Part shown: positions 29,642 through 57,707 of the stretch, in pieces
Layout: each line of letters starts with the position of its first letter
How positions within the stretch are numbered: the stretch's first letter is position 1
DNA from: a virus
Reading direction: 5' to 3' (one strand)
IMG/VR virus record: IMGVR_UViG_3300017963_000003
Location: 128,261-192,260 of that record
Length of the DNA stretch: 64,000 nucleotides
Notes under the pieces: generated by a model
Told to the model about the DNA's origin: nothing
Database searches by the model: none
The model's input: only the letters and a program-made list of their open reading frames with translations
Translations under genes and position numbers: made by a program

Positions 29642-30351
29642 GAGCACTCCTTGTCCAGCTGAAGAGCAACGTCGATGCCGTGTCCGAACTCCTCCACCAC
29701 AGTCTGGACGTTGCGTTTCTTGACCGACGTGTTGTCGACCCAATAGAACCGGGTGCCCAGACCCTTGAGCTGCTCCCCTAGCCAGAAGAAGCAGGCGTAC
29801 TCGGTGTAGTCGGTCCCGATGCCGTCGAAAGAGATACGACGGACAAACGTCGCGATCTCGTGAGGGGGTCGGTTGCGCCAGAGATGCATTCGCTTCTCCG
29901 ACCCTACCACCTGGAGACGCAACAGGAAGACCATGACTCCCCAAGGGTCCAGCAACTCCAGGCTCTTCGTGATGAAGCTCTCGGCAACCGAAAACGGTGG
30001 GTTGGTCGCGATGAGGTCGAACTTCCCCCGAGAGTTAGAGAACGGCGCCAACTCCTCATCCGTGAGTGTCATGAAGTCCCTGCCATACCAGAGCAGAGGG
30101 AGCTTTCCGGTCTCGCCCTCACCGGACAACTCCACACCGAGAGCTTGCTTGAACGGATGCTGCTCCACAGCGGAATGCAGGAACGGCGCTCCTCCCCCGC
30201 AACCGGGTTCGAGAACGTACATGGGTGGATTGTGCCCCGTGCAGCTGCGCGCAGCTTCAGACATCGCCAAGGCGCGCTTCACGGCCCAGTCAGAGTACAG
30301 CTTCGGGGTGGGGTAGTGGTCGCGACCACCACGCGCAGGGTTCTGTGCCAT
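29629..30351 (-). CDS. Small amino-DNA methyltransferase-like protein
   Basis: DHYPTP, VLEPGCGGG (SAM binding), IATNPPF (motif IV). Confidence 0.8.
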   Translation of the reverse strand: MAQNPARGGRDHYPTPKLYSDWAVKRALAMSEAARSCTGHNPPMYVLEPGCGGGAPFLHSAVEQHPFKQALGVELSGEGETGKLPLLWYGRDFMTLTDEELAPFSNSRGKFDLIATNPPFSVAESFITKSLELLDPWGVMVFLLRLQVVGSEKRMHLWRNRPPHEIATFVRRISFDGIGTDYTEYACFFWLGEQLKGLGTRFYWVDNTSVKKRNVQTVVEEFGHGIDVALQLDKECSCKS

Positions 30352-30520
30352 AGTTTCAACCTCCTGCTCTTAATATACAAGAAAAGGTAGGAGTCATCGG
30401 TACCAAGGAAGGGTTCACCGCAACGTACGGAGGGCAGTCCGTTGAGGGCCAGACCGGATGACTAGGCCGGTCCTTTGGAATGGCAGGGTGAACCCCTCCT
30501 TGGTACCGATGATTAGAGAC

Positions 30521-31129
30521 CTACTCGCAGTAGTCGTCGCCGGGAGCCTGCACGCACGCGTCCTCGCCACACGGAGAAAAATCAAGAGAGTAGAAGCACT
30601 CTCCGGGTGTCCCCGTGTAGGAGCCTGAAACATCACAAAGCCCCTCCTCGGCGTAAGTCACCAGGGTATCCGGACCCATTGTGCCCTCCCATTCTGTACC
30701 TTGGGCGCAGAAATCATCCGGGGGATCATCGCAGACTACCTCATCGCACGGAGTCTCCTTACAATAAGCGTCGGTGTCTTCCAGAGGTACGCACTCGAAA
30801 CCACAGTCCAAGATGTCGAACTCGTACGTGCACTGACCGTCCGAACACACGGCGTCTCCGGTGTAGTGGATCAAGGTCTCGCTACCCTCGCACACATCAA
30901 GTGGAGGGTCCAGACAGTCCTCGATACTCGAACACGACTGGTCGTCTTCAGTGCCGGTGTCGTCGTCGGTATCGGCACCCCCGTCACCGTCAACCCCTCC
31001 GTCGCCGTCATCTGTATCGTCGGTGTCGTCGACGTCATCCGTATCGTCGAAACCGTCGCCGGAACCACCGACCTTTTCCGCGCACGCACCAGTGCACAAA
31101 AGAATCAAGAACAGAAACAAAACTCGCAT
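30521..31129 (-). CDS. Cys-rich acidic lipoprotein
   Basis: Signal peptide with lipobox-like TGAC, DTDD repeats, duplicated C..PP.D.C Cys module; own TTGACA/TATATA promoter at ~31175-31202. Confidence 0.75.
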   Translation of the reverse strand: MRVLFLFLILLCTGACAEKVGGSGDGFDDTDDVDDTDDTDDGDGGVDGDGGADTDDDTGTEDDQSCSSIEDCLDPPLDVCEGSETLIHYTGDAVCSDGQCTYEFDILDCGFECVPLEDTDAYCKETPCDEVVCDDPPDDFCAQGTEWEGTMGPDTLVTYAEEGLCDVSGSYTGTPGECFYSLDFSPCGEDACVQAPGDDYCE

Positions 31130-31198
31130 AGCTTACCCTCCGTTGTTAGAGCCAGGCGTCAACTGACTCTCAATATATACCACAGCCTCCCCCAGCTG

Positions 31199-31612
31199 TC
31201 AACCCTCTTCTTCCCAGAAGAACTCCGAAACATCCGGCCTGGCGATGGAAGTGACCACGTCCCGGTCCCCGACGGGTTCGGTGACGTCGGCACCAGGCTC
31301 CTCCACCGGAGGAGTGTAGTCGAGCGTACGAGGCGGCGCTGCCGGACCCTCCTCGAAGAGAACCCGGCTCGGTGTCGTTGCCGGCGTCCCCAGCTCCGAA
31401 GTCCCCGCCAGGGCAGCAGCGATCTCAGGCATCAAGGTAGCCTGGGCGTACTCCTGAGCGGTCTGTTCGGCAGCGGTGAGGTCGGACTCCGGGACCTCGG
31501 CCTCGAAGTACAATCCCACCTCGAAGACCTCCATGCGGATCACCTGACCCTCGGCATTCGTGACCTTGACTCCGACTGCGATGTTACGCCCCACGGGCGG
31601 TGTATCTGACAT
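31199..31612 (-). CDS. Hypothetical protein
   Basis: ORF track. Confidence 0.65.
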   Translation of the reverse strand: MSDTPPVGRNIAVGVKVTNAEGQVIRMEVFEVGLYFEAEVPESDLTAAEQTAQEYAQATLMPEIAAALAGTSELGTPATTPSRVLFEEGPAAPPRTLDYTPPVEEPGADVTEPVGDRDVVTSIARPDVSEFFWEEEG

Positions 31613-31905
31613 CAGATGGCTCCTTTCTCGTCGCGGCCGATCATATCACAAGCCTTGTGGATCTCCCTTAACTTCCGGAACTTGTCTTCGGAGTCCAGAC
31701 ATCCTCGACAACGCTGGGCCACCGGCATCCCCTTGAGGACAGCCCGAACACGCAGGAGAACGTCGAACCTCAAACACTTTCCGAAGGTCTTACCCATGTT
31801 GGCAAAATACGGACACAGGTCCCGAGAAGGGGTCATGCACACCCTGTCCCCGCACTCTATCTCGAAGACAGAGAGAAGGTGCCTAGAGCTTCCCATCCAT
31901 CTCAT
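31612..31905 (-). CDS. Cys-containing hypothetical protein
   Basis: ORF track. Confidence 0.6.
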   Translation of the reverse strand: MRWMGSSRHLLSVFEIECGDRVCMTPSRDLCPYFANMGKTFGKCLRFDVLLRVRAVLKGMPVAQRCRGCLDSEDKFRKLREIHKACDMIGRDEKGAI

Positions 31906-32101
31906 CCGCGAGGCGTTGCAGCTCAGCCTGTTCCTTGGCTGCCTTCTTCGCCGCTGCGGCCTCTTCGGCTGCCTGGTGCTTTTCGCGATCCCTGATGTTG
32001 TCCCTGCACTTCTGACACCGCGTCTTGCCGTCTGGGAGCCTCTCCAGGGTATACCAAGGGGCCTCCCTGTTGCAGGTATCGCAATGGTTATGACCCGACA
32101 T
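31883..32101 (-). CDS. Small Zn-finger/coiled-coil protein
   Basis: ATG 32101 with AGGAGG RBS. Confidence 0.6.
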   Translation of the reverse strand: MSGHNHCDTCNREAPWYTLERLPDGKTRCQKCRDNIRDREKHQAAEEAAAAKKAAKEQAELQRLADEMDGKL

Positions 32102-32103
32102 CC

Positions 32104-32313
32104 CTACCTCCTGGGGGTCCTGAGGAAGCCTGAAGCCCCCCTGGACCCCAAAATGTTCGACACCACCCCCGGAGGGGGAGTACTGGTACTGTTGAAGGAC
32201 GCGCCGATACGGTCGAGAGCGCGCCGCTGCAAAGAAGACTTCCAAGCTCGACCAATTATCACCCAACCTCCGATGAGGAGTCCCATGCCGAGAAACATCC
32301 CGAAAAGTGACAT
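32104..32313 (-). CDS. Small membrane protein
   Basis: One hydrophobic segment. Confidence 0.55.
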   Translation of the reverse strand: MSLFGMFLGMGLLIGGWVIIGRAWKSSLQRRALDRIGASFNSTSTPPPGVVSNILGSRGASGFLRTPRR

Positions 32314-32675
32314 CAGTCCCCCTTCCACCGACTCGGAGCGAACTCGTGATCCCCAAGAGCACACAGCTGCTGCTGGATCTCATCCAGCTTCTCCCGCAGC
32401 ATCACACGGGCAGACATGACAGCCTCTCCCGTAGTGGAGAAGCACTCGCTGTGGTTCTTCTGGACAACGATACCGCCCCCAGGACCCTTGTCCCCTACCA
32501 GCCGGGGGCGACCATCGGCGCTCGTACACTCCACGAAGAAGTACTCGTTGGTAGTTCCACGCCAGATGATCTCCGTGACCTTCCCCGCCAGGATCTGCAT
32601 CGGAGGATCTTCAGGGAACACGCCGGTCTGGGCGAAGAAGACGCGATCCCCCTCTCGGGCCTGTCCGGGTTCCAT
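32313..32675 (-). CDS. Hypothetical protein (SH3-like barrel plus coiled coil)
   Basis: ORF track; TGATG coupling. Confidence 0.65.
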   Translation of the reverse strand: MEPGQAREGDRVFFAQTGVFPEDPPMQILAGKVTEIIWRGTTNEYFFVECTSADGRPRLVGDKGPGGGIVVQKNHSECFSTTGEAVMSARVMLREKLDEIQQQLCALGDHEFAPSRWKGD

Positions 32676-32908
32676 CAGTGAAACGCGTCTTTCTTGTTCG
32701 GAGGTACCGCTACCGTGGGTTCGGTGTGCTGCACAGGGACCACCAGAGTGATCTCCTTGGTCTGCGGATTGAGGTTGATGACGGTTCCGGGATGTCGAGG
32801 TACACGCTCCCTGATCCCGGCTTCGATGTACTGCGCCAACGCCTCAACCGCACTGGTGAAGTCCAAGACGTACACCGCCTGCTCCTGGGAGCCTTTCTTT
32901 ATCTTCAC
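32675..32908 (-). CDS. Small hypothetical protein
   Basis: GTG start with GAGGAG RBS. Confidence 0.55.
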   Translation of the reverse strand: MKIKKGSQEQAVYVLDFTSAVEALAQYIEAGIRERVPRHPGTVINLNPQTKEITLVVPVQHTEPTVAVPPNKKDAFH

Positions 32909-32918
32909 GTCTGTCTCC

Positions 32919-33308
32919 TCAGAAGGGGATGTCTTCGTCGTCTCCGCCACCGGCACCACTACCGGGTCCGGGGTGGCCGCTGAGGGCGATCCAGTCTTCG
33001 TCGAGGAGTTTTCGTGTTCCTTTGCAAACAGGATATTTCGTACAACCCCAAAAAAGATCTCCCGAAACCCCATTAGATTTTACCTTCATGAGCGCATTGC
33101 ACTTCGGACAGTGTACCTCTCGATGAGCCCCCTCGGGGAGAGAGGCGGGTGAACTGCCAGCGGCTGCCCTACGCTCTTTGCGATCCACGTAGAAGAGGAT
33201 CAACCTGCCGTTGTCCATCGCGGTTCCAGTGATGTAGATGTCCCCCACTGAGTCCAACCACCCTTGGATTCTGCCCTGGTGCACCTCTGTGAAAACCACT
33301 ACCTTCAT
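32919..33308 (-). CDS. Protein with a topoisomerase C4 zinc finger
   Basis: CPKCNALM...FWGCTKYPVCKGT; DEDIPF tail. Confidence 0.8.
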   Translation of the reverse strand: MKVVVFTEVHQGRIQGWLDSVGDIYITGTAMDNGRLILFYVDRKERRAAAGSSPASLPEGAHREVHCPKCNALMKVKSNGVSGDLFWGCTKYPVCKGTRKLLDEDWIALSGHPGPGSGAGGGDDEDIPF

Positions 33309-33496
33309 GAACCTGCGATCTCCCTGTCGGGGATTCTCTGCTCACCCTCTTCGTACTCAGCCACCCACTCCCGTTGATAGATGTCGTAGACCATCCGAGG
33401 GGGAGCTGAGCCGTACCTCTTCTCGAACTTCGACCACGCCACCTTGGCCGCCCTGGGCCTCTTGGGCGCACTGCTGAATGAAATCAACTTACCCAA
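33305..33496 (-). CDS. Small hypothetical protein
   Basis: ORF track. Confidence 0.55.
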   Translation of the reverse strand: MGKLISFSSAPKRPRAAKVAWSKFEKRYGSAPPRMVYDIYQREWVAEYEEGEQRIPDREIAGS

Positions 33497-33776
33497 CCTC
33501 TATGACTCCTGTATCGATGAAAACCGGCGTACCCTCACCGACGTACGCGCCCGCTACGTTGTAGTCGAAGAACTCTTCGGCCATCTCGTAGGTCATGCCG
33601 TCCCTCTCCATGAGGATCTCGACGCACTTCTCCCGGCTGTACGCTACCACCGGAGGTGCGCAGGCGCGGCAGGCGATCCCGATTATGGCCGCCTCGAACC
33701 CATCAGCCAGGCACGCCTCGGGGTTGATCTCCGAGATGTTCTCCCTGATTATCTCAACCGGGTCAGACACAGACAC
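33489..33776 (-). CDS. Conserved phage hypothetical protein
   Basis: ADGFEAAIIG...EEFFDYNVAGAYVGEGTPVF. Confidence 0.8.
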   Translation of the reverse strand: MSVSDPVEIIRENISEINPEACLADGFEAAIIGIACRACAPPVVAYSREKCVEILMERDGMTYEMAEEFFDYNVAGAYVGEGTPVFIDTGVIEVG

Positions 33777-34050
33777 CCTCCTCCCACATGTTGATCCGAA
33801 ACACGGACTCCTCTTCCTCCGGGTCAACCTCTTCCTCGACTTCGTCCTCGAACTCTTCGCGCTCCAATAGATGAGGAAACGACCAGATGTAGCAACCCGT
33901 GATCATGCAATGGTACTCGAACGTCGGAACCTCAGCCCCTTGAAGCATCGACAGCAGGGGACGACCGTAAGTGCCGCTGACAGAATAGATGTCGGGGATC
34001 ACGCACTGTAGCTTATCCCGTATCATCTCCTTGCTCAGTAGAGGTCTCAT
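33763..34050 (-). CDS. Hypothetical protein
   Basis: ATG 34050 directly after the TTGTATATTAAGA motif. Confidence 0.55.
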   Translation of the reverse strand: MRPLLSKEMIRDKLQCVIPDIYSVSGTYGRPLLSMLQGAEVPTFEYHCMITGCYIWSFPHLLEREEFEDEVEEEVDPEEEESVFRINMWEEGVCV

Positions 34051-34069
34051 GTTCTTAATATACAAGAAG

Positions 34070-34450
34070 CTAGGAGTTGCTCACTACGAGCTTGAGCGGG
34101 GGCTTCTTGTTCTTCTGGACAGCTTCCTCCAGTGTCATCATGTTCGGCACACGCTGCGGCATGATGGCGGGCATCCTGGCGCTCCACCAGAAGTAGGTAC
34201 CTCTGAGATTCCGCAACTTGCAGAACGCCCCATCCCGGACCTGCACGACCAGCTCGCCGCCCTGGTGGAACACGAAGACCTCTCCGAGCACCCGGCCCTG
34301 CTCGTTCCCAACCATGTACTTCCCCGGCTTAGCGGGCATCTCCCGCTGCCAATGACCGTTGAGAAAGCACGCCCAGGCGTGGGGGATCGGGCTGTCCTTC
34401 TCGACGCCGTCCACGAGCATCTTGACTTCGAATTTACGGTTCTCGCTCAT
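34070..34450 (-). CDS. Hypothetical protein
   Basis: GGAGGGC RBS; TTGACT/TATATA promoter at ~34491-34519. Confidence 0.7.
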   Translation of the reverse strand: MSENRKFEVKMLVDGVEKDSPIPHAWACFLNGHWQREMPAKPGKYMVGNEQGRVLGEVFVFHQGGELVVQVRDGAFCKLRNLRGTYFWWSARMPAIMPQRVPNMMTLEEAVQKNKKPPLKLVVSNS

Positions 34451-34508
34451 CTCGCCCTCCGTTTCTGCCAGGTGTCGCCTGACTCTCTAATATATACCAC
34501 AGGTGGCT

Positions 34509-34907
34509 TCAGAAGTCAATCCTCTTCGAGCAAATCGCCTTGACGTACCCACGGAGGTCCTCCGTGAACCAGAAACTCAGAGGACGACACGTCGGAAAGG
34601 GGGCCTCGAAGGCGTTGCAGCCATGGAGGAGCCAGCTGTCACGCAAGATGGCGTCGTCACCCACCGAGAAGGGTACGAGAGGTCGATGAGACCTCTCAGG
34701 TATCATCACCGACAGGGCATCCGGGCACACCTCGTTGGCGAGGTGCCTCAACGTCAAAGACTCCTCGGGGGAGGCCTCTCCGATAGCGACCACCACTCCG
34801 TCCCCCTCCCAGTGATTGTACCAAGCCCGAATGGTCATCAAAGATAGACGTACCTTGGATTCGAGAGGCATCGCCTGCCTCTCGATGAGCCGGTCCAGCG
34901 AAGGCAT
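34509..34907 (-). pseudogene. Shortened, degenerate PAPS-reductase-family protein
   Basis: Keeps PLESKVRLS..IRAWYNHW and GCNAF...RPLSFW..EDL..Y; lacks the SGGKDS loop and most of the middle. Confidence 0.5.
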
Positions 34908-34920
34908 CGAAGCGAGACCC

Positions 34921-35451
34921 CTACCCTTCTTGACCGAACCAACGACCAGCTGAGATCAGCTCACTGTGCAGGTAACGGCCGAAGTGACCCATCGACTCCA
35001 GGTACCGCGCAAGATGCTCCTCCTCGGAAGCGGTCTGCTCGGCCGCCCATCCCGGCTCCCCTCCGGCAGACTCCTCGCCCGCATACTTCTGCTCTACCTC
35101 TCGGATGGCGTCACTGAGGGTAGAGAACGCGTACGAAAACAAATCGTCCCACCACGCCGCGAAATCAGGAGGAACCACCGCGCCCCTGCGCCTCGCCGTC
35201 ACGATCCTGTACGCCGGCTGAAGGGTCAGGTCGTCCACAAGACGCGTCAGCACAGCAGACTCTAAACCCTCGGGCATCATCTCCAGCTGCGCGTAGATGT
35301 TATCCAGAAGCTGGAGGGCCTCCTCGTCGGCGTCTGCATCGAGATCGGCGTCGGCCTGTCTACGCCTCACAGGAGAGGACTTCCCCACCGAGGCTGCGAT
35401 GCGGTCCCAGGAACGCTCGCAGACGTTGAACTCTTCTCTAATACGCTTCAT
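34921..35451 (-). CDS. Hypothetical protein
   Basis: ORF track; DRIAAS and RRRQAD motifs. Confidence 0.7.
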   Translation of the reverse strand: MKRIREEFNVCERSWDRIAASVGKSSPVRRRQADADLDADADEEALQLLDNIYAQLEMMPEGLESAVLTRLVDDLTLQPAYRIVTARRRGAVVPPDFAAWWDDLFSYAFSTLSDAIREVEQKYAGEESAGGEPGWAAEQTASEEEHLARYLESMGHFGRYLHSELISAGRWFGQEG

Positions 35452-35617
35452 CGTCGATCTCCTTCAGAAGCAGCCAGTCGCAGAAGGACTGAAAGTCTTC
35501 ATCGTCTCGTTGACGTTGTTCAGCCGTCATCCCTCGACGCTCGCGCTCGAAAACGTTCACGAGAGTCGAAGGGTGGTTGTAGTCCAGGTCCTCGGTATTA
35601 ACGTCGTCCGGTCTCAT
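35438..35617 (-). CDS. 59-aa hypothetical protein
   Basis: Hand-translated MRPDDVNTEDLDYNHPST...KEIDDEAY; coupled to the upstream stop. Confidence 0.5.
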   Translation of the reverse strand: MRPDDVNTEDLDYNHPSTLVNVFERERRGMTAEQRQRDDEDFQSFCDWLLLKEIDDEAY

Positions 35618-36168
35618 CCTACCTCTTCTCGTTGAGGATCATAAAACTCCAAGAACTCGACAGGTATCTTGCCGTCGAAGAGCAGCAAGCAGTCCCCGAA
35701 TGTCGTGTCGGAAAAAGAGAAGCCCTCTACCACTCCCGACATCGCTTCGAGGTCCACCACGATGGCAACCTCTCCGTAAGAACTACTCATCTCCGGATCG
35801 AGACCCACGCAGGCCATATGGATGTTGGGGTGGGCTTCCTTGAGGAGTTCTTCCACCTCTTCAAACCACGGATGACCGTCAGGAAGATTCCGCTTCCACT
35901 CCGAAGGGTGACCGTACTTCTCGTCCAGGATGTCCTGGTACTCGTACGGAAGCTCGCAGTACATGTACCCGGCGTGGTGTTCTCCAGGGGTCCAGTTCTG
36001 TGTGCCCAGACCCTCACGCATGATCTTCTCGGCGTTCTCTCTCGAAGTCCAGTGCCACCCCTTCCCGTGACCACCGATGCCGCCAGCCTCGTAGAACGGA
36101 CATTCCCGCCGCTCGACCTCTTGAGCTATGCGACGAATACCGGAGTCTGAAATGCCTTGGAGTTTCAT
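35614..36168 (-). CDS. Leader-tagged ADP-ribosyltransferase-like protein
   Basis: Leader MKLQGISDSGIRRIAQ; WHWTSRENAEKIMREGL...IPVEFL (ART/Tpt1/DUF952-like pattern). Confidence 0.65.
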   Translation of the reverse strand: MKLQGISDSGIRRIAQEVERRECPFYEAGGIGGHGKGWHWTSRENAEKIMREGLGTQNWTPGEHHAGYMYCELPYEYQDILDEKYGHPSEWKRNLPDGHPWFEEVEELLKEAHPNIHMACVGLDPEMSSSYGEVAIVVDLEAMSGVVEGFSFSDTTFGDCLLLFDGKIPVEFLEFYDPQREEVG

Positions 36169-36575
36169 TCTTCCACCATTGCAGGAGACCACCAGCGCTC
36201 GATGTCCTTCACCTCTTCTACGTCCGTCACCACGTACCCGTCTTCATCCATCTCAGGATAAGCTTCGAATTGAGAAGCGGTAGGATCAAAGATACTCCCG
36301 TTCACATCTAACCAAGTGTGCCCCTCTGGCTCGGAATCGTCCCCGTAAAGATCATAAAACCCATGATGCACTTCTACGTCGAAACCAGCCGAGTCCAACA
36401 ACACAGCCCATTTAGCAGAAGCCTCATGGCATCCGTATATGACTCCTACAACACCCATATTCTCCCTGACGAAGGTCTTGAGATTGTCACCCGCCAAAGG
36501 AGAAAACCAGTATCCATCAAAAGCCGTTTGAGCAATCCTCCTCAAGCCGGAATCTGGGATGCCTTGGAGTTTCAT
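36165..36575 (-). CDS. Leader-tagged transglutaminase/papain-fold protein
   Basis: Leader MKLQGIPDSGLRRIAQ; GCHEAS...GHTWLDVNGSIFDPTASQF (Cys-His-Asp). Confidence 0.65.
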   Translation of the reverse strand: MKLQGIPDSGLRRIAQTAFDGYWFSPLAGDNLKTFVRENMGVVGVIYGCHEASAKWAVLLDSAGFDVEVHHGFYDLYGDDSEPEGHTWLDVNGSIFDPTASQFEAYPEMDEDGYVVTDVEEVKDIERWWSPAMVEE

Positions 36576-37393
36576 CAAGGGGTACTCCAGCGCTCCACTA
36601 CATCAATGAAGTTGTCGTGAGCGTCTTCCTCGGTGTGTGCGTGCCACGTCTCCGTCTTGCCATCAGCCCACACCACCTGGACCGTCTTTCCGAAGCGGTA
36701 CACTGTGCACGACTGGGTCTCGGGGTAAGGAGAATCCATCCAAGGGATGTGCTCCTCCTCGTCGGGCTCCTGCGTATCCACCAGAGCCTGCGCAGACTTC
36801 TTGTCCAGCCACACCGAGTCGATCAGGGCATAGATCAAGTCCTCCTGCTCCGGGGTGAATACCCACCGGACACCCATGTTCTCTTCGGCCCACCCACGAG
36901 GAGTATTCCCGCGTTCCTCGGACGTCGCCATCCAGTCAGCAACCATCTCAGCAATGTCGAGAACTCCCATCCCGCTACCATCGATAGGTCGCTCCGCAGG
37001 GCCGTCCCGATCCTCTTCGTTGAGGACGTCCAGCGTTTCGAGCTGATGGTACTCCGGATGGTGGGGGTTGTTCAGAATGTGATGCTGAGTGGCCGCCTTG
37101 ATCGCGTCGTCCATCCCCTCTGGGAGCTGGCACTCAACGCCGTCGTCCTGGCACTTGTAGCGCCACGTCAACCAGACGTACGGGTCCAGCTCGGGTTCGT
37201 CAAACTTCCCCGCATCGTGCTCTTCTCCGCGCTCGATCAACCCATCCAACCCATCCCACGCGTCCTCCAGGAGGCGACAGTACTTCTGAACCAGGGCTAT
37301 GTGCCGTTCAGTGCGCTCGACGAAGTGACGCTTCATCTCGTCGTCGAGCATCTCCGCAATACGCCTCAGCGCCGCCCCTGTGATGCCTCTCAT
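36575..37393 (-). CDS. Leader-tagged HD-domain protein (DUF5662-like)
   Basis: Leader MRGITGAALRRIAE; RHI..V, HDAGKF, HHILNNPHHPEY, EMVADW. Confidence 0.7.
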   Translation of the reverse strand: MRGITGAALRRIAEMLDDEMKRHFVERTERHIALVQKYCRLLEDAWDGLDGLIERGEEHDAGKFDEPELDPYVWLTWRYKCQDDGVECQLPEGMDDAIKAATQHHILNNPHHPEYHQLETLDVLNEEDRDGPAERPIDGSGMGVLDIAEMVADWMATSEERGNTPRGWAEENMGVRWVFTPEQEDLIYALIDSVWLDKKSAQALVDTQEPDEEEHIPWMDSPYPETQSCTVYRFGKTVQVVWADGKTETWHAHTEEDAHDNFIDVVERWSTP

Positions 37394-37395
37394 CC

Positions 37396-37926
37396 TCACC
37401 TCTGGGACTCTTGCTTCCCGGCCCACTCGCCGGTCACAGCGTACGCGGCCTCTTCGAGGTGGTTCCCATGGTAGGCCTCCTCCCCGCGCATCCACGCCTG
37501 GAAGGAAGCGCTGGCATAGGAGAGCGCACCCGCCGCCACCCACGAGATGCCCCCACAAAGGGCTCCCGGTACCGGAGAGCCTGCGCTCCACGAGAGCAAG
37601 AACATCGTCAATCCGTACAGGAACCCAAGCAGCATCGCGGCCTCGTACTGCTCACTGTGGAAGTGCTCGTGGAACTCCACTGGAGTGTCGATGCCCTCGC
37701 CACCGGCTGCCGTGGGGAAGAACATGCCACCATGACCGAGACAGTTGCCGCCCATCTTGAACTTCCGGTCAGGCCACGAGCCTTCCTTGAACTCGAACCA
37801 AAGACCTTCCAGCCAGTGAAGCTTGTGACCCCAGAGCGCCCATGCGGTCAGGATGACGACCCACGAGATGATGTCCCACGGCCACGTCCACAGGTAGGTC
37901 AGGTAGTAGCGTGCTGGACGTTTCAT
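37396..37926 (-). CDS. Membrane protein (no leader)
   Basis: Three hydrophobic helices; HEHFHSEQ motif. Confidence 0.7.
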   Translation of the reverse strand: MKRPARYYLTYLWTWPWDIISWVVILTAWALWGHKLHWLEGLWFEFKEGSWPDRKFKMGGNCLGHGGMFFPTAAGGEGIDTPVEFHEHFHSEQYEAAMLLGFLYGLTMFLLSWSAGSPVPGALCGGISWVAAGALSYASASFQAWMRGEEAYHGNHLEEAAYAVTGEWAGKQESQR

Positions 37927-39209
37927 AGCGCCTCCTCGTACTCGCGCATCAACTGGTACGCTTCTTCAAAGCGCCCAACCCAAGGATTGCGTTCAATCAC
38001 CACAGGTACCTCACCAAGTCCGGCACGCTGAGCAGCGAACCAGCGGTGGTGCCCATCCTCGATGAGGTAGAGACCGTCCCCGACAGGAGTTACCGTCAAC
38101 GGCCCCATGTACCGGGGCCAACCCTCGGCCTTGTAGAACTGGTCTTCGATGTCATTTATCGAGGAGGGGTCTTTCTCTTCTAGAGGTTCCGTAGGGTACA
38201 ACGAGTCCACCGGAACCCACGTTGCCGATGACAGGTCTTCAGGTAGCGCCTCGGCAATGCGACGAACTCCGTTGCCCAGCTGAAGCTCAGGCTCCTCTTT
38301 CTCCTCCAGAGGCACGTAGTAAATGTCTTTATAGTCCTCCGGATTAGGCCATGTAGGCTCCACTACTCCTTGCTCCGCGACTCCCCGAGGAAGTTCTATT
38401 TCGAGAATCACAGGGTCTTCCAAAGATCCGTCCCAGCCCCCTTTGCGGGCGTACTCACGCGCAGACACCAGCGTACCAAACAGGTACACCCCGTACCCCC
38501 AATCCCCCCACCCACCCCAAAACCCTTCACGCTCGATACTGTCAGCAGACTCCCTATCGGTGACGTGGTAATAGGTCTCCGTACGCTGAGCCTCAGCAAC
38601 ACGACGCTCCTCCAAAGGATGGTCGGGCATCAGGTAGTCGTTCTGCCAATACAACACCTCCGGCTCGCCGTAGTGCTCTGAGAACTCGTTCTCAATTATC
38701 TCGCCGGTCTCTTCTCGGTCGAACGCCTTCTCCGGATCAATGGTATCCCAGTCTTCGAGAGGAACCCACCTCTCGCCGTTCCAGACGAACACTTCCTCGG
38801 GGTCGACATCATCGACGATCCAGGCATCCGCGAAAGCGTCTCGTGTACCGATCTCGTCGCGCTTCAAACCCTCGAAGACGTTGGTACGCACCGCGAGCAC
38901 CACAGGGAAGGTGCCGGTGAAGAACTCCTGCTCGTCACCGACCAACTCATTCTGCCCCCAGTCCTCCGACCGGCTGTACCAGAATAGAAGACCGTCCCAA
39001 GTCGTTGTAAAGACGCCCTGCTTGCTGTGCTCCGAGTAACCAGCGCCCTGCCCTACCCCACCTCCCACGTCTCCGAGAAGACCCTCTTCAGAGATACCAT
39101 CGAGATTCCGATAGTAGGTCACGTGGTACACAACATCCGGAACGTCCCCAAAGAACCCCTCCTGCGCGATCCTCCTCAATCCGGAATCTGGGATACCTCT
39201 CAACCTCAT
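37923..39209 (-). CDS. Leader-tagged three-domain protein: ART-like, ART-like, ParB/sulfiredoxin-like
   Basis: Leader MRLRGIPDSGLRRIAQ; YHVTYYRNLDGISEEGL; RRVAE linker; YHVTDRESADSIEREGF; RRIAE linker; LIEDGHHRWFAA. Confidence 0.7.
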   Translation of the reverse strand: MRLRGIPDSGLRRIAQEGFFGDVPDVVYHVTYYRNLDGISEEGLLGDVGGGVGQGAGYSEHSKQGVFTTTWDGLLFWYSRSEDWGQNELVGDEQEFFTGTFPVVLAVRTNVFEGLKRDEIGTRDAFADAWIVDDVDPEEVFVWNGERWVPLEDWDTIDPEKAFDREETGEIIENEFSEHYGEPEVLYWQNDYLMPDHPLEERRVAEAQRTETYYHVTDRESADSIEREGFWGGWGDWGYGVYLFGTLVSAREYARKGGWDGSLEDPVILEIELPRGVAEQGVVEPTWPNPEDYKDIYYVPLEEKEEPELQLGNGVRRIAEALPEDLSSATWVPVDSLYPTEPLEEKDPSSINDIEDQFYKAEGWPRYMGPLTVTPVGDGLYLIEDGHHRWFAAQRAGLGEVPVVIERNPWVGRFEEAYQLMREYEEAL

Positions 39210-39889
39210 CTCGGCCCCTCGTAAGGTCCCCATCTGGAGAGGGCCGCCTCAAACATCTCAGGCGTGACGCCGTTGACCCCGACGATATACTCAGGGGGAA
39301 CGAAGCCCGTGAACACGACACCTCCTGGATGGAGGTCCCCTCCAAGAGGGACGCTCCCGTCCAGAGGAACATCAACAGTCACCCAAGGGAAATGCTTGTT
39401 ATGCCGCTCAGATTCACTCGAAGGGTGGTTGACGCCTACTCCGAAAACAGACGTCGGTGACTCACTGCTTCTCCCAGCGCCCTCTGGTTGCGACACGAGG
39501 CCTTGAGAAAGGATAGACTGCATGAGGACCAGGCCTATACCGCCTTGCATGCCCGCAGAGTGAGAGAAACGGAAAGTCCCTTCTAGGGGTGAAGGAAGGT
39601 ACCGTTCGTCCTGCACAGCACTCCAGGCCTCCATTGCAATAGGTCTGATGAGGTCCCACTCATCCGTGTATTGTAGCTCTCTGAACTCCTCGGCAGACAT
39701 CCCCAGAAGATCGCCCATGATCGACGCAAACGCGTCCGCGTCGTACATGAGGTTGCCCACATCGGACCAACGCAACGCGAAATAGGCCGCCATCTCCTCC
39801 ACATCAGGGAGTGCGATGTCGCGCCCATCCCCTTCTGCGGACTGTGCGATCCTTCTCAATCCGGAATCTGGGATGCCTTGGAGTTTCAT
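39206..39889 (-). CDS. Leader-tagged protein with a possibly degenerate ART-like C-domain
   Basis: Leader MKLQGIPDSGLRRIAQ; FSHS...SILSQGL...GFVPPEYI. Confidence 0.65.
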   Translation of the reverse strand: MKLQGIPDSGLRRIAQSAEGDGRDIALPDVEEMAAYFALRWSDVGNLMYDADAFASIMGDLLGMSAEEFRELQYTDEWDLIRPIAMEAWSAVQDERYLPSPLEGTFRFSHSAGMQGGIGLVLMQSILSQGLVSQPEGAGRSSESPTSVFGVGVNHPSSESERHNKHFPWVTVDVPLDGSVPLGGDLHPGGVVFTGFVPPEYIVGVNGVTPEMFEAALSRWGPYEGPR

Positions 39890-40278
39890 CAGTACAGCTT
39901 CATCCCCAAGCTTTTAGCCTTCTCCGCACGCTCAGGTCTCGTAGATCCAGCATCCAACGAGATGTCTCCATCTCCTGTGATGCGATAACGCGCGTACCCT
40001 CCGTCACCGTAGAGAACCCATACGTAGCTATCACGCATAAGTTCCCAATAGTCCTCTTCATCCCGGTAAGGCAACGACTCCTCCAAAGCCTCTTCCAGCC
40101 TCTGGAGGATTCCGCCCCAGGAGTACTCGGAATCTTCCGCAACACTGCGTCGTGCCCACGACTCACCCTCTATCTGAGTGAGTACCTCAAGGACACCGTC
40201 AGGGTCCTCCAAGACGTTCAGACCTCCCGACTGCGCGATCCTCCTCAACCCGGAATCTGGGATGCCTTGGAGTTTCAT
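39889..40278 (-). CDS. Leader-tagged small acidic protein
   Basis: Leader MKLQGIPDSGLRRIAQ. Confidence 0.75.
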   Translation of the reverse strand: MKLQGIPDSGLRRIAQSGGLNVLEDPDGVLEVLTQIEGESWARRSVAEDSEYSWGGILQRLEEALEESLPYRDEEDYWELMRDSYVWVLYGDGGYARYRITGDGDISLDAGSTRPERAEKAKSLGMKLY

Positions 40279-41633
40279 TACAGATCACGCCCCCAGTCGC
40301 CGCCCCCGAAACTGCTCAAGTACCCCATGACCTCCCGGTACGAGGGGTCGTCGTGAGCCTCTCCCCACGTACGGTCCGCGAAGTCCTGGCCAAGCTCACG
40401 AGTCAGATCGTACAGTTCGCTGGAGGCTGCGAACTCCACCTCGTTCCACGAGGAGCCGAACTCGTAGTGTCCAGATGCACCAGCATCCTCCTCGAACGTT
40501 AGCTCCCGGTCCCATTCTGTGAGCAACGCCTCGGCAGCGGCACGATGCTCCTCGAAGGAACTTACGGAGCGAACCTGGTCCCGGAGACGAAGAAGGTTCC
40601 GAGAGGTCTGCCGCTGGAACTCATGGACTTCGTCCATCGTGTACGTGCGCTGGGCGATGCGCCGCATCATCGCGACCACCCTGCCCCCACTATCACCAGA
40701 CTCTCGATACGGAGGGCTCGGAGGCTCGGGAAGTTCACCCTGGAGATGCGGAGCGGCTTCAAGCAGACGCTTCAGGGTAGTGCCGTGGTACTCGATGCTG
40801 CGTGGTTGGTACTGGGTCTCCGAGAACAAGGAGGTCTGATCGCTCTCAGGCTCTCCCCAAACGAGCTGCTCCTCGAAATCAAAGTAGCCCCCGTAGACGT
40901 CATCGATCCAGGGGATGTTGAACCCCGGCCAGCGAGATTCCAACTCGCCCTCCGCGTTATCGTAGTCCTCCATCTCGGTAGCAACCGGAGTGATGAACCA
41001 GACCGCGCGAACACGGTCAGCCCCTACGTCTTCGGTGTACCGGTACTGGTCCGTAGCCAACATCAACAGCTCAGAGGAGAAGTCACCTGTCTGCATGTAC
41101 TTCCGGAACGCATCCGGGAACCCCGACTCCTCTACAAGACCAGACAGCGGGTTACCGAAGTGGTAGAACGTCCCCTCCGCGATCATACTCAAAGGATCGG
41201 TCGAAGAGGCATCAGGCTCTGTATCCGACTCCAAGATGTCGAACGCGGCATCGCGAATCTCCTCGTCAGAGGAGTCGACTGTCAAGTCGTGCCACCCTGC
41301 CATCTCCTGGAGATGAAGCTCCAAGACTTCCCAAACCATCTCCTCGGCGTCGTAATCCGTCTGCGGCTCGTGACCGCTCATGTCCAGGGCGACCACCACG
41401 GGATAGTCGGTTACGTAGTGAACATCGTTCTCGTCCGAATCAGTGTAGGACTGCGCGACACGACCCACCGCGTACTGAGCAGCGATCTTGAGATCACCCG
41501 TAGTGTGGAAACCCGGATGCGTGGTTACCCCTTTATACTTCTCTCCCACTGAGTAAGGCGGTTCGGCCAGGAAGTCGCCTACCTTGCGAGAGATCCTGTG
41601 AAGGGCCTGATCTGTGATGCCAGGAAGCCGCAT
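40278..41633 (-). CDS. Leader-tagged multidomain protein, ART-like N-domain
   Basis: Leader MRLPGITDQALHRISR; GFHTTGDLKIAAQYA...YPVVVALD; internal MMRRIAQ before the last domain. Confidence 0.7.
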   Translation of the reverse strand: MRLPGITDQALHRISRKVGDFLAEPPYSVGEKYKGVTTHPGFHTTGDLKIAAQYAVGRVAQSYTDSDENDVHYVTDYPVVVALDMSGHEPQTDYDAEEMVWEVLELHLQEMAGWHDLTVDSSDEEIRDAAFDILESDTEPDASSTDPLSMIAEGTFYHFGNPLSGLVEESGFPDAFRKYMQTGDFSSELLMLATDQYRYTEDVGADRVRAVWFITPVATEMEDYDNAEGELESRWPGFNIPWIDDVYGGYFDFEEQLVWGEPESDQTSLFSETQYQPRSIEYHGTTLKRLLEAAPHLQGELPEPPSPPYRESGDSGGRVVAMMRRIAQRTYTMDEVHEFQRQTSRNLLRLRDQVRSVSSFEEHRAAAEALLTEWDRELTFEEDAGASGHYEFGSSWNEVEFAASSELYDLTRELGQDFADRTWGEAHDDPSYREVMGYLSSFGGGDWGRDL

Positions 41634-41636
41634 GTA

Positions 41637-41930
41637 CTACTCAAACAAGTCAGGGTTCGCACCCCACATCGAATCCAGCAGGGTGTTGAGTTCCTGAGAC
41701 AAGGTCTCCACGTTCTGTACGCATTCGACAAAGCTCTCTGCGTGGTCTCTGCCGAAGCGGCCCTCGTCCATGGCTTGGCTGAACTCCTGAAGGGAGCCCG
41801 CAGCGAACGTAGCGTTCGAGAGCAGTCGAGCCAGGATGTCCCTATCGCCGTCAGAGATCTCCGCAACTACCTGACGCTCTCCGTTCCGCGCAATCCGGCG
41901 TATCCCGTCATCAGTGATTCCACGCTTCAT
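41637..41930 (-). CDS. Leader-tagged small helical protein
   Basis: Leader MKRGITDDGIRRIAR. Confidence 0.7.
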   Translation of the reverse strand: MKRGITDDGIRRIARNGERQVVAEISDGDRDILARLLSNATFAAGSLQEFSQAMDEGRFGRDHAESFVECVQNVETLSQELNTLLDSMWGANPDLFE

Positions 41931-42148
41931 CGAGTCCTCCTAACGGTAACCTTCTTGGGCAGAGGACCACACTGAAGAGTGGCTTCAGTATACCCCAACC
42001 CCTTGTCTTCGATCTTGAGAACCTCGCAACCAGGGTGCTTGGCGCGCAGGTACCGCATCAACTCACGGTCCGCACAACCACCTTGAATTGCTAGAAAAAC
42101 AGCTACAACGGCAGAAAGAATGAGTCCGACGTAGCGAGTAGTCATCAT
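41927..42148 (-). CDS. Small exported or lipoprotein-like protein
   Basis: Signal-like N-terminus ending in GGC; own TTGACA-17-TATATA promoter at ~42168-42196. Confidence 0.6.
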   Translation of the reverse strand: MMTTRYVGLILSAVVAVFLAIQGGCADRELMRYLRAKHPGCEVLKIEDKGLGYTEATLQCGPLPKKVTVRRTR

Positions 42149-42199
42149 GCCCTCCAAGTACCCTCCCTATATAGCACAGCCTTAGAGGGTTGTCAACAA

Positions 42200-43696
42200 C
42201 TACTCCCTCTTCGAGCTGGCCTTGAGATCGTCCCAACGCACCTTGATGAGACGGCCGTCATCGAGGCGCATGAAGTAGTAGTCACCCTGCTTGTCGAACT
42301 GCGACTCCGCGTACCCCCTCGTCCCCTTCGGATAGGTGGTGGTCTGGCCCCAGCCGGTAGTGACGGTCACGTCGTTCTTGAGCTGAACACGCTCGTTGGA
42401 GTTGAACGCGTACTGCTCGTCCTCGATGAGTCCAGGATCGAGGTCATGCCGGATGTTACCCAACTCGTCCTCGCGCTCCTCAGCGGTTTCGATCTCCTCG
42501 AAGGCGAGCTTGATCTGATCGGCACGTGAACCACGCGGAGGAACGCGTACGTTCACTGAGTCCTCGATGAGGCCAACCCCGTCACTGGGAATGCTGTGCT
42601 GGGGAGGGTTACCCATCGGGTCATGCTCGTCGGAAGGGGGTCCGATAGGGTCGGCCTCGGAGAGTTTGTTCGGGAAATCGTCCGAATTGCCCAAGGGCGC
42701 TCGGTCGATCTTCATCTCGCCCTGCTCGACAGGACCCATGCCAGGGGTACGGATCTGCGGACGACCGGGCTCAGTACGAGCCGGCATCGCATCAGCGACA
42801 CGGAAGGGAGTGGAGAGGTCCACCCCCTCCATCAGGACCACACCGGCCGTCAAGGGCGTCTGAAGATCCACACCCTCCATGAGTTCTGCAAGGTCGTCAG
42901 CCATGTTGGGGGCCTTCTCGACCGGGCTCATGGGGGTCTCGTGGACATTCTGCTGGAGAGCCGACAGCAGGAGGTCTTCCATCTGACGCTCGATCTCCTG
43001 ACGCTTCTTCCAGGTACCGGCGCACTCCACGTTGTTCATGCGGTCACGAACATCGAGAAGCTCACGCACCTTGGCAATCGCCGCGCCTTCGAGCGGGTCT
43101 CCGGCGAAGCAATCGAGGAACTCAGAGATCGAGTCCACTCCCCAACACGAGGTCTTGCGGCTACCCTGGACGACGATGACGATCTGGTCTGCCGGAGCGG
43201 CCTTCATGCGCTCCAGGTTGAGCATGTTCAGCTCGTGACAGATCTTCGACTCCTCGTCCCATTGCGCGCTCAACTCCTTGTCGTACTCGTCACTCTCCAG
43301 GTCGAGGGCGAAGAGCTGCTCCAGGAGAGCCACGGCCTCCTGCTCGAAGGGCGTACCCTTGAGCTTGTAGAACCAGTCCTCCCAATACATCGACTCGCTG
43401 TATGCGCGCTTCTTCGACATCGCCGTAGCCTCCAGGGCGCCAGCCCCCTCTCCGAGCGTCCCCCGCTGGGATTCGAAGAGGTCGACCGCTGCCTCGCTCA
43501 CGTAGGTCAGGATTTCGTTCGAGCCGTCGAGGAACTCGTTCTCGCCTTCAAAATCGTCCAGGTTCACTGGGATCTCTACCTGCCAAGGGAGACCCGAACT
43601 CTCCGTCACGCTGACCAGGTACGTACCTTCGGTGTCACTGGGTTCTACCAGAACATCGAAGCCTCGGATGATTGTGGTGAAGCTGTCCTGCGACAT
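42200..43696 (-). CDS. Large modular acidic protein with a C-terminal SH3-like domain
   Basis: ORF track; basic [RK]xA linkers. Confidence 0.8.
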   Translation of the reverse strand: MSQDSFTTIIRGFDVLVEPSDTEGTYLVSVTESSGLPWQVEIPVNLDDFEGENEFLDGSNEILTYVSEAAVDLFESQRGTLGEGAGALEATAMSKKRAYSESMYWEDWFYKLKGTPFEQEAVALLEQLFALDLESDEYDKELSAQWDEESKICHELNMLNLERMKAAPADQIVIVVQGSRKTSCWGVDSISEFLDCFAGDPLEGAAIAKVRELLDVRDRMNNVECAGTWKKRQEIERQMEDLLLSALQQNVHETPMSPVEKAPNMADDLAELMEGVDLQTPLTAGVVLMEGVDLSTPFRVADAMPARTEPGRPQIRTPGMGPVEQGEMKIDRAPLGNSDDFPNKLSEADPIGPPSDEHDPMGNPPQHSIPSDGVGLIEDSVNVRVPPRGSRADQIKLAFEEIETAEEREDELGNIRHDLDPGLIEDEQYAFNSNERVQLKNDVTVTTGWGQTTTYPKGTRGYAESQFDKQGDYYFMRLDDGRLIKVRWDDLKASSKRE

Positions 43697-43702
43697 CTCG
43701 AC

Positions 43703-55951: not shown

Positions 55952-56398
55952 TCAGCCCACCTGCACCTCGAAGTACGTCTTCAAGAAGTTGTCGAACCTC
56001 AACAGTTGATCGGGGATGTAGAGCTTACCCCCTTCACGGAACTCAACCATGTCCACGTAGGTGTGAAGCTCACGCTTGAACTTGTCCAAACGAACCGACG
56101 GAGCCTTGGGGTCGAAAATACGCTTCCCTTTCTTGACGTCCTCCTCGGTAACCGGCGCCGCCTCCATCGAAGGAAGCTCCTTCATCTCCCCCGGAACCGG
56201 CACCCCCAGCACCTCGTCGTAGAGATGGGTGCAGCCATCATGGTCGTGCATCTCTACCCGCTTCATCATCGACTGGAACGTCTCCAAGGTCATCCTGTCC
56301 TCGGGTTCCCCAATCGGAGGAGTGTCCCCCGGACACCTCCCCGTAGCCTTGATGTGATCGACGGCCCACTCAGCCCACGTCCGCAGTTTCTCCCTCAT
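55952..56398 (-). CDS. Hypothetical protein
   Basis: ORF track. Confidence 0.65.
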   Translation of the reverse strand: MREKLRTWAEWAVDHIKATGRCPGDTPPIGEPEDRMTLETFQSMMKRVEMHDHDGCTHLYDEVLGVPVPGEMKELPSMEAAPVTEEDVKKGKRIFDPKAPSVRLDKFKRELHTYVDMVEFREGGKLYIPDQLLRFDNFLKTYFEVQVG

Positions 56399-57707
56399 TG
56401 ACCCACCTCACGTTGTCGAGCATGCTCTCGAACATCTCATCCGAGCCGGGCTCGACGTTGAACATCTCCTGATACTTGCGCAGCGCCAACTGCTGCATGA
56501 ACTCCCGGTACACCGCCCCCTTGAAGCACTCAACGAAGTCCGCCTCTTTCTTGACTCCGACGGCCTCCATGGCGGCCTTCTTGGACCCCAGCTGCTGGAC
56601 CTGAGCATCCGCCATGCGCGACATCTGGATGTGCAACCACTCCTGGGGAAGCGGGGGTATCGTCGAATGGCGCATGATCTGATCGATCACCTGGTTGGCC
56701 ACGGTACTCCGAAGGGCGCCGTCAACCTGCTTGGCGTAGTCCTCCTCGAAACGCTCACGGAACGCCTCCAGATCGTCGAACCCGCCATCCTTAGCCAGCT
56801 CGTCGTCAACCCCCGGAGTACTGATCTGCTGCAAGCCGTGAACCTTGATCGTAGCCGAGACAGGCTTTCCGGCGTGCTCGGGATCATGCTTACTCGCAGG
56901 GAACTCGCACTCGAACAGATCACCTACCTTGTGACCCATGAGGTGCCCACGCAACTCCTCGATGGGTATCCCGGCGATCTCGACCCACTGGCGCTGGAAG
57001 GTCCCGTTGAGGTACACCTCCCCGTCTACGCTAGCCGTGATGTCCAGGCACGCGCTGCTCTCTGCCCCGATCACCCCATCGGGATCATCCGTCAGCGTAC
57101 GGAATTGACGCTGAAGCTCCTTGAGTCGTTGATCGTACATCTCGCTCTTCGGAACGATCTGCGGCTTCTTGATCGCCCAGTTGATCTCGCCGCTCATCTT
57201 GAGGCTCGGCGTGAAGTAGACCACCGTTACCAGCTGAGGTGACTTATCGGGCTGGAAATCGAACAGCTCCATCCCGTCGAAGAACAGGATGTCGTCCTCG
57301 ATCTTCTCGCTCACGAGCTTCGTCAGTAGATCACCGTAGACGCGCTTCAGGGGGTAGCGCTGCTCCACCATCTTCCGGGCACCGAGTATCTTACCGCCCT
57401 TGGCCTTCTTCCCCTTCACCTTGAGGGCGCCGACGATGCGATCCTCGTTCTCGCGCCAGTACTCGTCCATCTGCTTGCGCAGATCATCGTACCTGAACCA
57501 GATGACCACGCGGTACGGAGGAGCCAGGGGTTCGATCACGGGCTCCCTGAGGGGGATCTCCCCCAGCTCCCCCTTCTCCATCTGATCCTGGAGCTTTCGG
57601 TCGATGTCGGCGGTATCCACGAGTACGGCGTCCTCGGGGATGCTGGACTCAGGTTGATCGACTGAGGTGTCTTCGGACGGTGAGTTCTGTTCGTGGTTCT
57701 CCGACAT
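56370..57707 (-). CDS. tig: Trigger-factor homolog
   Basis: FKBP-like ITASVDG...LMGHKVGD...HAGKPVSATIKVHGL and C-domain PGVDDELAKDGGFDDLEAFRERF. Confidence 0.8.
   Translation of the reverse strand: MSENHEQNSPSEDTSVDQPESSIPEDAVLVDTADIDRKLQDQMEKGELGEIPLREPVIEPLAPPYRVVIWFRYDDLRKQMDEYWRENEDRIVGALKVKGKKAKGGKILGARKMVEQRYPLKRVYGDLLTKLVSEKIEDDILFFDGMELFDFQPDKSPQLVTVVYFTPSLKMSGEINWAIKKPQIVPKSEMYDQRLKELQRQFRTLTDDPDGVIGAESSACLDITASVDGEVYLNGTFQRQWVEIAGIPIEELRGHLMGHKVGDLFECEFPASKHDPEHAGKPVSATIKVHGLQQISTPGVDDELAKDGGFDDLEAFRERFEEDYAKQVDGALRSTVANQVIDQIMRHSTIPPLPQEWLHIQMSRMADAQVQQLGSKKAAMEAVGVKKEADFVECFKGAVYREFMQQLALRKYQEMFNVEPGSDEMFESMLDNVRWVNEGETADVG

Follow-up and report, generated by a model that had tools for sequence, protein, structure and literature searches.

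Does a short DNA sequence that recurs at the starts of dissimilar phage genes recur for the sake of the DNA, as a platform on which genes are exchanged, or for the sake of the peptide that it encodes? The question is raised by a gene array in the window analyzed here, the last 64 kb of a 192,260-bp viral contig of 58.6% GC (IMG/VR record IMGVR_UViG_3300017963_000003), in which one 29-bp sequence occurs in identical form at 36547-36575, 39861-39889 and 40250-40278, with no such repeat expected in shuffled sequence. The original prediction had located these three sites correctly. It described the repeat as a leader "exon", which is a misnomer, fused to foreign cargo genes, and proposed that recombination between leaders allows cargos to be gained, lost or reordered. 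Taken together, our results make it very probable that the leader is a protein tag, that its cargo is modular, and that the array belongs to a lineage-specific island. By analogy, the repeat may encode an N-terminal address comparable to the capsid targeting sequence (CTS) of phage T4, plausibly for loading proteins into the head, a reading that we favor but hold tentatively.

The 29-mer is the reverse complement of the first 29 nucleotides, from the start codon onward, of minus-strand open reading frames (ORFs), and its edge coincides exactly with the ATG. The close variants previously noted near 36127-36168 and 39163-39209 were both found, with their strand corrected, since they too are reverse complements of minus-strand gene starts: 36140-36168 is a fourth copy of the 29-mer with three mismatches, and a 55-nt repeat family also includes 39155-39209. 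In a six-frame motif scan of the window, the N-terminal peptide MKLQGIPDSGLRRIAQ or variants of it, about 16 residues long, heads eight ORFs, which start at 36168, 36575, 37393, 39209, 39889, 40278, 41633 and 41930 and lie tightly packed on the minus strand between 35614 and 41930. The diverged leaders of the ORFs starting at 37393, 41633 and 41930 had been missed in the original prediction. The array comprises the following genes.

41637-41930, minus strand: ORF I, 97 residues, the first tagged gene of the island, with a 15-residue leader at 41886-41930
40278-41633, minus strand: ORF H, 451 residues, tagged, leader at 41586-41633
39889-40278, minus strand: ORF G, 129 residues, tagged, leader at 40231-40278 containing the exact 29-mer
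39206-39889, minus strand: ORF F, 227 residues, tagged, leader at 39842-39889 containing the exact 29-mer
37923-39209, minus strand: ORF E, 428 residues, tagged, leader at 39162-39209
37396-37926, minus strand: ORF D, 176 residues, the sole untagged gene among the eight tagged ones
36575-37393, minus strand: ORF C, 272 residues, tagged, with a 14-residue leader at 37352-37393
36165-36575, minus strand: ORF B, 136 residues, tagged, leader at 36528-36575 containing the exact 29-mer; an ORFan
35614-36168, minus strand: ORF A, 184 residues, tagged, leader at 36121-36168 with three mismatches to the 29-mer

The tag follows the pattern Met, Lys/Arg, then Gly-Ile-(Ser/Thr/Pro)-Asp-x-Gly-Leu-Arg-Arg-Ile-Ala, the core of which presumably resembles the Ile-Thr-Asp-x-Gly-Leu-x-x-Leu-Ala turn of some leucine-rich repeats. 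Two internal relics of the leader were found, one within ORF E (about 38250-38285) and a short one at the domain joint of ORF H (about 40650-40670). A leader profile search of the 192-kb genome recovered three further degenerate N-terminal copies outside the array, two of which lie downstream of the capsid gene, separated from it by a few genes, and no trans copy or antisense of the 29-mer was found elsewhere. Separately, a 156-residue ORF at genome positions 101011-101478 (L064:6011-6478, minus strand) opens with the tag core alone, Met-Lys-Met-Arg-Arg-Ile-Ala-Glu; like the ORF H relic, this start may be a short form of the leader. Genes of the array adjoin through ATGA, TAATG or TGATG overlaps or 2-3 nt spacers, and the ATG of ORF I overlaps the stop of a conserved gene, J. 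The translational coupling previously noted at such overlaps was confirmed, and untagged genes of the same operon are joined in the same ways.

The codons of the leader indicate what is being conserved. Copy A writes the Arg-Arg pair as CGT CGC, whereas B, E and G use AGG AGG, and Leu and Ile codons vary too; because the peptide is kept across eight copies while its codons change, selection acts on the peptide. The leaders of relatives likewise retain the peptide while their synonymous sites have diverged. Judged from these comparisons, protein is the main level at which the leader is conserved; at the DNA level, the identity shared by leaders is short, local and mosaic. The residue at position 4 of the tag varies by lineage: four copies here have Gln, at least seven copies in the lineage of contig L052 have His, and L013, L017 and L025 have Lys. 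The lineage-typical residue holds on orthologous cargos as well, and tags within one genome are more alike than tags on orthologous cargos of sister genomes. Two explanations are suggested by this pattern: leaders are homogenized inside each genome, or they co-evolve with a partner specific to that genome. As a separate observation, four leaders (39162-39209, 39842-39889, 40231-40278 and 36528-36575, minus strand) encode Arg-Arg with the rare codons AGG AGG (or AGA AGG), and this creates a Shine-Dalgarno-like GAGGAGGA run about 32-40 nt into the coding sequence, with no start codon after it.

Relatives were found with a degenerate back-translated leader pattern and a capsid-protein search (37 related loci). 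The pattern matched one IMG/VR contig and about a dozen metagenome contigs, often in tandem arrays; its matches to a bacterial tRNA-dihydrouridine synthase-like motif and to isolated motifs inside large proteins were set aside as false positives. At least 63 distinct tagged N-termini were collected, from a clade of uncultured phages of ~190-210 kb. In all of them the tag begins at Met, conservation ends right past the Ile-Ala core, and the cargos, 98% of which are net acidic, include DUF5662, ADP-ribosyltransferase (ART) fold, ParB-like, DUF5661, HAD and GNAT families. Leader-tagged ORFs occur in relatives whose capsid protein is at least about 69% identical; none turned up in more distant relatives or in the best capsid match, the uncultured GenBank relative Virus Rctr197k (61.6% identity). 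The capsid protein of the phage analyzed here falls in PHROG 2522, with weak identity (26-28%) to those of RSL1, PaBG and Yoloswag, and no cultured phage matched the contig at the DNA level. Complete genomes contain between 3-4 degenerate tag copies (G002) and 11 (this genome). Synteny across 13 loci shows a conserved backbone of a scaffold-like gene, the capsid gene and about ten more genes, with tagged ORFs confined to five variable positions among the backbone genes that follow the capsid gene, each slot holding from none to about ten; more than 20 tagged cargo families occur in a single locus each. DNA-level mapping of breakpoints in the slots failed, the relatives being too diverged (~50-77% identity per 30-column window).

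That the leader is a module grafted onto unrelated domains, as the original prediction held, is borne out by the families to which the cargos belong. Only about 9 of 119 DUF5662 homologs carry it, all among the 21 closest; the remaining ~110 start at the domain or bear other lineage-typical N-termini. The same is true of ORF E, for which 4 of the 149 homologs listed carry the leader and 145 do not; in both families only the closest homologs bear it, and the proposed check of whether cargo homologs elsewhere are leaderless is answered in the affirmative. Among DUF5662 proteins of other phage lineages (P0011-P0072), we observed N-termini of the MNWYK type, the MRKTA..QIAEEV type and the MKIYKLAE type, so that this one domain appears to have been paired repeatedly with different lineage-specific tags. 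A tagged DUF5661 protein at L052:10210-10335 contains five 18-nt tandem repeats (a six-residue unit of Pro/Ala/Thr/Gly/Val/Asp) after an internal leader copy.

Past residue 18, no mutual similarity could be detected among the tagged proteins of the array, which are markedly acidic. ORF E consists of an ART-fold domain (about residues 22-170), a second related domain (about 206-308), the leader relic and a C-terminal ParB-like domain (PHROG, 6e-9). An AlphaFold2 model of residues 1-200, built from 70 sequences, has a mean confidence (pLDDT) of 88 and places the leader in a separate, low-confidence helix (residues 8-20) before the ART-fold domain. In a Foldseek comparison of domain 1 with the PDB, the best matches were all to the ADP-ribosyltransferase superfamily, Tpt1/KptA first (E ~1e-3), followed by DarT, PARP14 and pertussis toxin S1. 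The first two domains have hundreds of homologs, domain homologs occur within proteins of 800-1700 residues, and domain 1 exists as a stand-alone protein in L052; no homolog of the first 200 residues was found in cultured phages. ORF E is therefore predicted to combine two ART-like domains with a ParB-like domain, that is, at least two unrelated predicted effector domains in a single polypeptide. ORF H, too, is composite: its N-terminal ~290 residues are 55% identical to residues 129-426 of a tagged protein in L052, where this domain sits fused behind another tagged domain. No multi-domain make-up was shown for the other six tagged ORFs.

Among the remaining cargos, ORF C has a DUF5662 domain from residue 22, directly behind the leader (Pfam, 1e-25), and leader-bearing orthologs in L052, L025 and L050; in cultured phages it found weak DUF5662 matches only, annotated as hypothetical. 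ORF A has one ortholog, of 66% identity and bearing the His-type leader of the sister lineage, and a weak Atlas lead to DarT/Arr clusters; it is possibly an ART-like protein. ORFs F and G have no ortholog in the relatives fetched, and ORF B no homolog among the 5.8 billion proteins searched. With a GC content of 49.9% and a third-position GC of 52.6% (1st-2nd percentile of genes), ORF B is also the single compositional outlier in the GC and codon-usage check that had been proposed: its segment 36241-36360 measures 46.7%, in line with the 45-48% counted earlier, although the genome stands at 58.6% and not ~63%, and all other cargos fall inside the normal gene range of the genome, so the idea of low-GC foreign cargos holds for ORF B and not for the rest. 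The untagged ORF D is hydrophobic and carries an HExxHxxQ motif, which makes it a possible zincin-like peptidase. It has no Pfam match, a weak Atlas lead to eCIS_core/DUF4157-like clusters (0.90, TM 0.61), and no homolog in four complete relatives; a single-sequence AlphaFold2 model (pLDDT 56) was unusable.

The array lies in an island bounded by conserved genes, as follows.

41927-42157, minus strand: gene J, the conserved upstream flank of the island, with homologs in G001 and G002
34921-35617, minus strand: two small untagged ORFs after ORF A, which close the lineage-specific island and are absent from G002 together with the array
34509-34907, minus strand: the conserved downstream flank gene, 43% identical to G002 114393-114025

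In the complete relative G002, the J homolog directly adjoins the homolog of window 34512-34907, and hence the whole 7-kb island (34921-41930) is missing there; the breakpoint coincides with gene boundaries and shows no residual leader. Another complete relative, G001, has ~12 kb of different genes at this position. Half of the eight cargos have an ortholog in any relative fetched: in the L052 phage, orthologs are limited to C, domain 1 of E and the initial part of H, and the ortholog of A is on another contig. As these comparisons show, tagged genes come and go, become fused and change place from one relative to another. The original prediction was right in this respect, as cargo content, number and position vary greatly and fusions retain relics of the leader. 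The variation between strains that it had also led one to look for did not appear: nine contigs of the same phage, from at least five samples, are 99.99-100% identical over 34000-43700. We observed, however, that contigs 100% identical across the array swap small ORFs just downstream (~30000-34000, compared with L067-L075), for example 120 residues against 132, or 129 plus 77 residues against 132. Standing variation exists beside the tagged array and none within it.

What could a single peptide accomplish at the head of so many different proteins? We propose a model in which one phage-encoded partner would recognize all tagged proteins through the tag. This partner would most plausibly belong to the assembling head, as scaffold, portal or shell, and ART-like, ParB-like, HD-like and other proteins would enter the capsid and be injected along with the phage DNA, in the manner of the T4 internal proteins that the CTS targets. 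Head loading is the leading candidate because tagged genes lie among late structural genes in most relatives, because the domain repertoire matches that of ART, ParB and GNAT effectors known or predicted to travel in phage heads (PMC5512222), and because T-even phages do likewise with a different peptide, their diverse internal proteins having only a CTS in common (PMC3012670, PMC9026906). We regard head loading by the tag as a genuine possibility, at somewhat less than even odds. A fuller version, in which an undescribed 16-residue address peptide loads interchangeable enzymes (ART-fold, ParB-like, HD-like DUF5662, GNAT and HAD) into the capsid so that they are co-injected, undergoes concerted evolution in each genome, tracking a genome-specific receptor, and is acquired in its resident form by new cargos, is more speculative. 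A literature search found no description of the tag peptide, nor of DUF5661 or DUF5662.

The analogy with T4 can be specified. In both cases a short N-terminal peptide is the sole shared part of unrelated, fast-changing small proteins, and the cargo set is polymorphic between related phages, T-even phages having polymorphic internal-protein loci according to Repoila et al. (1994, as cited in PMC3012670 and PMC9026906). A head maturation protease is encoded here as well (phrog_18299, 1.4e-32), along with a scaffold-like protein, a portal and the capsid protein, the four genes lying at genome 59.8-70.8 kb; no PDB relative of the protease was found by sequence. The cargo includes ART-fold enzymes, and the packaged T4 protein Alt is also of ART fold. 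On the other hand, the 16-residue tag, with its Gly-Ile-x-Asp-x-Gly-Leu-Arg-Arg-Ile-Ala core, is unrelated to the CTS in sequence and has at most an Ile-Ala-(Glu/Gln) end in common with it, and the phage is of another lineage by its capsid family; the relation would be one of analogy, not homology. The polyvalent proteins of phages (PMC5512222) offer a second comparison. Their repertoire is the same (ART, ParB-like, GNAT and zincin-like peptidase domains), and multi-domain fusions occur in both, but most domains here are separate small ORFs, each with its own N-terminal tag, and the fusions E and H retain a tag relic at the joint.

Several observations weigh against head loading. T4 internal proteins are basic, whereas the tagged cargos are strongly acidic. 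The residue behind the tag core is variable (Gln in 50%, otherwise Ser, Lys, Arg or Ala), with no conserved cleavage residue and in particular none of the Glu type that follows the CTS. The main array lies 100 kb from the head genes, in a long same-strand gene run that includes RecA and SbcCD. Neither the capsid propeptide nor the scaffold or protease is enriched in the tag core (8 matches outside tagged genes, with ~6 expected), and the capsid propeptide alignment contains no motif matching the tag. Finally, the conserved flanks of slots 1 and 2 (genome 56056-58283, corresponding to L063:5056-7283, minus strand; also L078-L109) encode small membrane proteins, of which one is holin-like, one has an N-terminal transmembrane segment and a coiled coil, and one has a signal peptide and a C-terminal transmembrane segment; these may constitute a lysis-type cassette inside the structural module. 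Among the head genes themselves, we observed that the portal gene (genome 66398-70795, L063:15398-19795, minus strand) is split by intein-like Hint and LAGLIDADG domains within a 1466-residue open frame.

A serious rival is that the tag serves in docking to, or recognition by, a common partner that is not part of the virion, such as a phage chaperone, a modifying enzyme or an N-terminal protease, and that the tagged enzymes act in the cell as an early or middle host-takeover set. We consider this unlikely but well worth retaining. It would accommodate the lack of a cleavage-site signature behind the tag and the presence of the untagged HExxH protein, ORF D, inside the array, although ORF D is absent from the four complete relatives. 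The array also shares its minus-strand gene run with recombination genes and with one conceivable partner, a chaperone of nascent N-termini:

56370-57707, minus strand: trigger-factor-like gene (Trigger_C, Pfam 3.9e-8), with 49-52% identity in three complete relatives

However, this gene is present also in G002, where tags are few and degenerate, and the position of tagged genes in most relatives, among late structural genes, is not what a host-takeover set expressed early would lead one to expect.

The model of the original prediction, in which the leader is chiefly repeated DNA whose copies recombine by homology and thereby capture, delete and reorder cargos, is in our view improbable, but part of its evidence is real. 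Copies B, F and G are identical at all eight synonymous sites of codons 2-9, in codons that are rare in the genome, and the chance that three independent copies would agree in this way is ~1e-6; the agreement ends there, with differences at 3-5 of 7 synonymous sites in codons 10-16 (Fisher p 0.007-0.08). Copy G is a mosaic, with nucleotides 1-29 matching B and F and showing seven differences from E, and nucleotides 30-48 showing only one difference from E, which fits local copying or exchange between leaders. Three leader copies in L017, an unrelated metagenome contig, are likewise identical over 29 nt, which is partly explained by recent tandem duplication of whole units, and ORF B has a foreign composition behind a 5' leader of the resident type. 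Nonetheless, identity is limited to 29 nt in three of eight copies, simple crossing-over leaves the homogenization of the 5' half alone unexplained, the array is invariant in the nine contigs of this phage, and the island boundary relative to G002 lies at gene ends with no leader scar. Moreover, synonymous sites vary in the remaining copies, and because they vary in the leaders of relatives too, homology of leader DNA cannot be the general mechanism of exchange.

Two known platforms of gene exchange invite comparison. The promoter early stem-loop elements (PeSLs) of T4-type phages are mobile regulatory cassettes, intergenic DNA elements with an early promoter and a stem-loop terminator, that bound variable genes, and a role in modular shuffling has been proposed for them (PMC2839356, PMC4122927). 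Short repeats at the borders of variable genes in hyperplastic regions are common to both systems, but the repeat here is coding and mainly conserved as protein, with no promoter-like, terminator-like or folded-RNA signal: candidate promoter and terminator sites did not exceed the shuffled count, with none at a gene junction or leader, and an RNA element was rejected when five leader regions folded no better than shuffles. The locus also differs from an integron-like platform. None of the 11 island ORFs or the flanks J and 34509-34907 is recombinase-like (Pfam and PHROG scans of ten gave no recombinase match), and the sole repeat in the island is the coding leader. If the leader is a protein address tag, the 29-bp identity of three copies and the mosaic would reflect recent copying or exchange of the 5' part of the tag inside the genome, a by-product that can help new cargos gain a tag and not the reason for which the tag exists.

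It is very doubtful that the shared start is simply a portable translation-initiation module, a start codon with favorable opening codons that secures the expression of captured ORFs, and that the peptide itself is functionless. Nearly every copy uses AAA as its second codon, a choice made for only 13% of Lys codons genome-wide, the start region is no more structured than shuffles (z -0.8 to +0.7), and DNA identity stops near +29, roughly the extent of an initiation region; yet residues 5-15, well past that region, are kept across synonymous change in the 63 proteins from many genomes, and relics are retained internally at fusion joints. Equally hard to credit is an ordinary paralogous family whose bodies have diverged past recognition around a conserved N-terminus, for although the genes are in tandem and L017 has recently duplicated whole units, the bodies belong to different widespread families (DUF5662, ART fold, ParB-like, DUF5661, HAD and GNAT) that are leaderless elsewhere.

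In summary, whatever its function, one short peptide marks a hyperplastic set of probable host-takeover or counter-defense enzymes, whose turnover far outpaces that of the structural backbone. Should the tag prove to be a signal for head loading, the repertoire of injected proteins of a whole clade of uncultured phages would be definable from sequence alone, cargo addressing of the T4 style would have arisen independently with a different peptide, and a short portable tag for packaging foreign proteins would be at hand.

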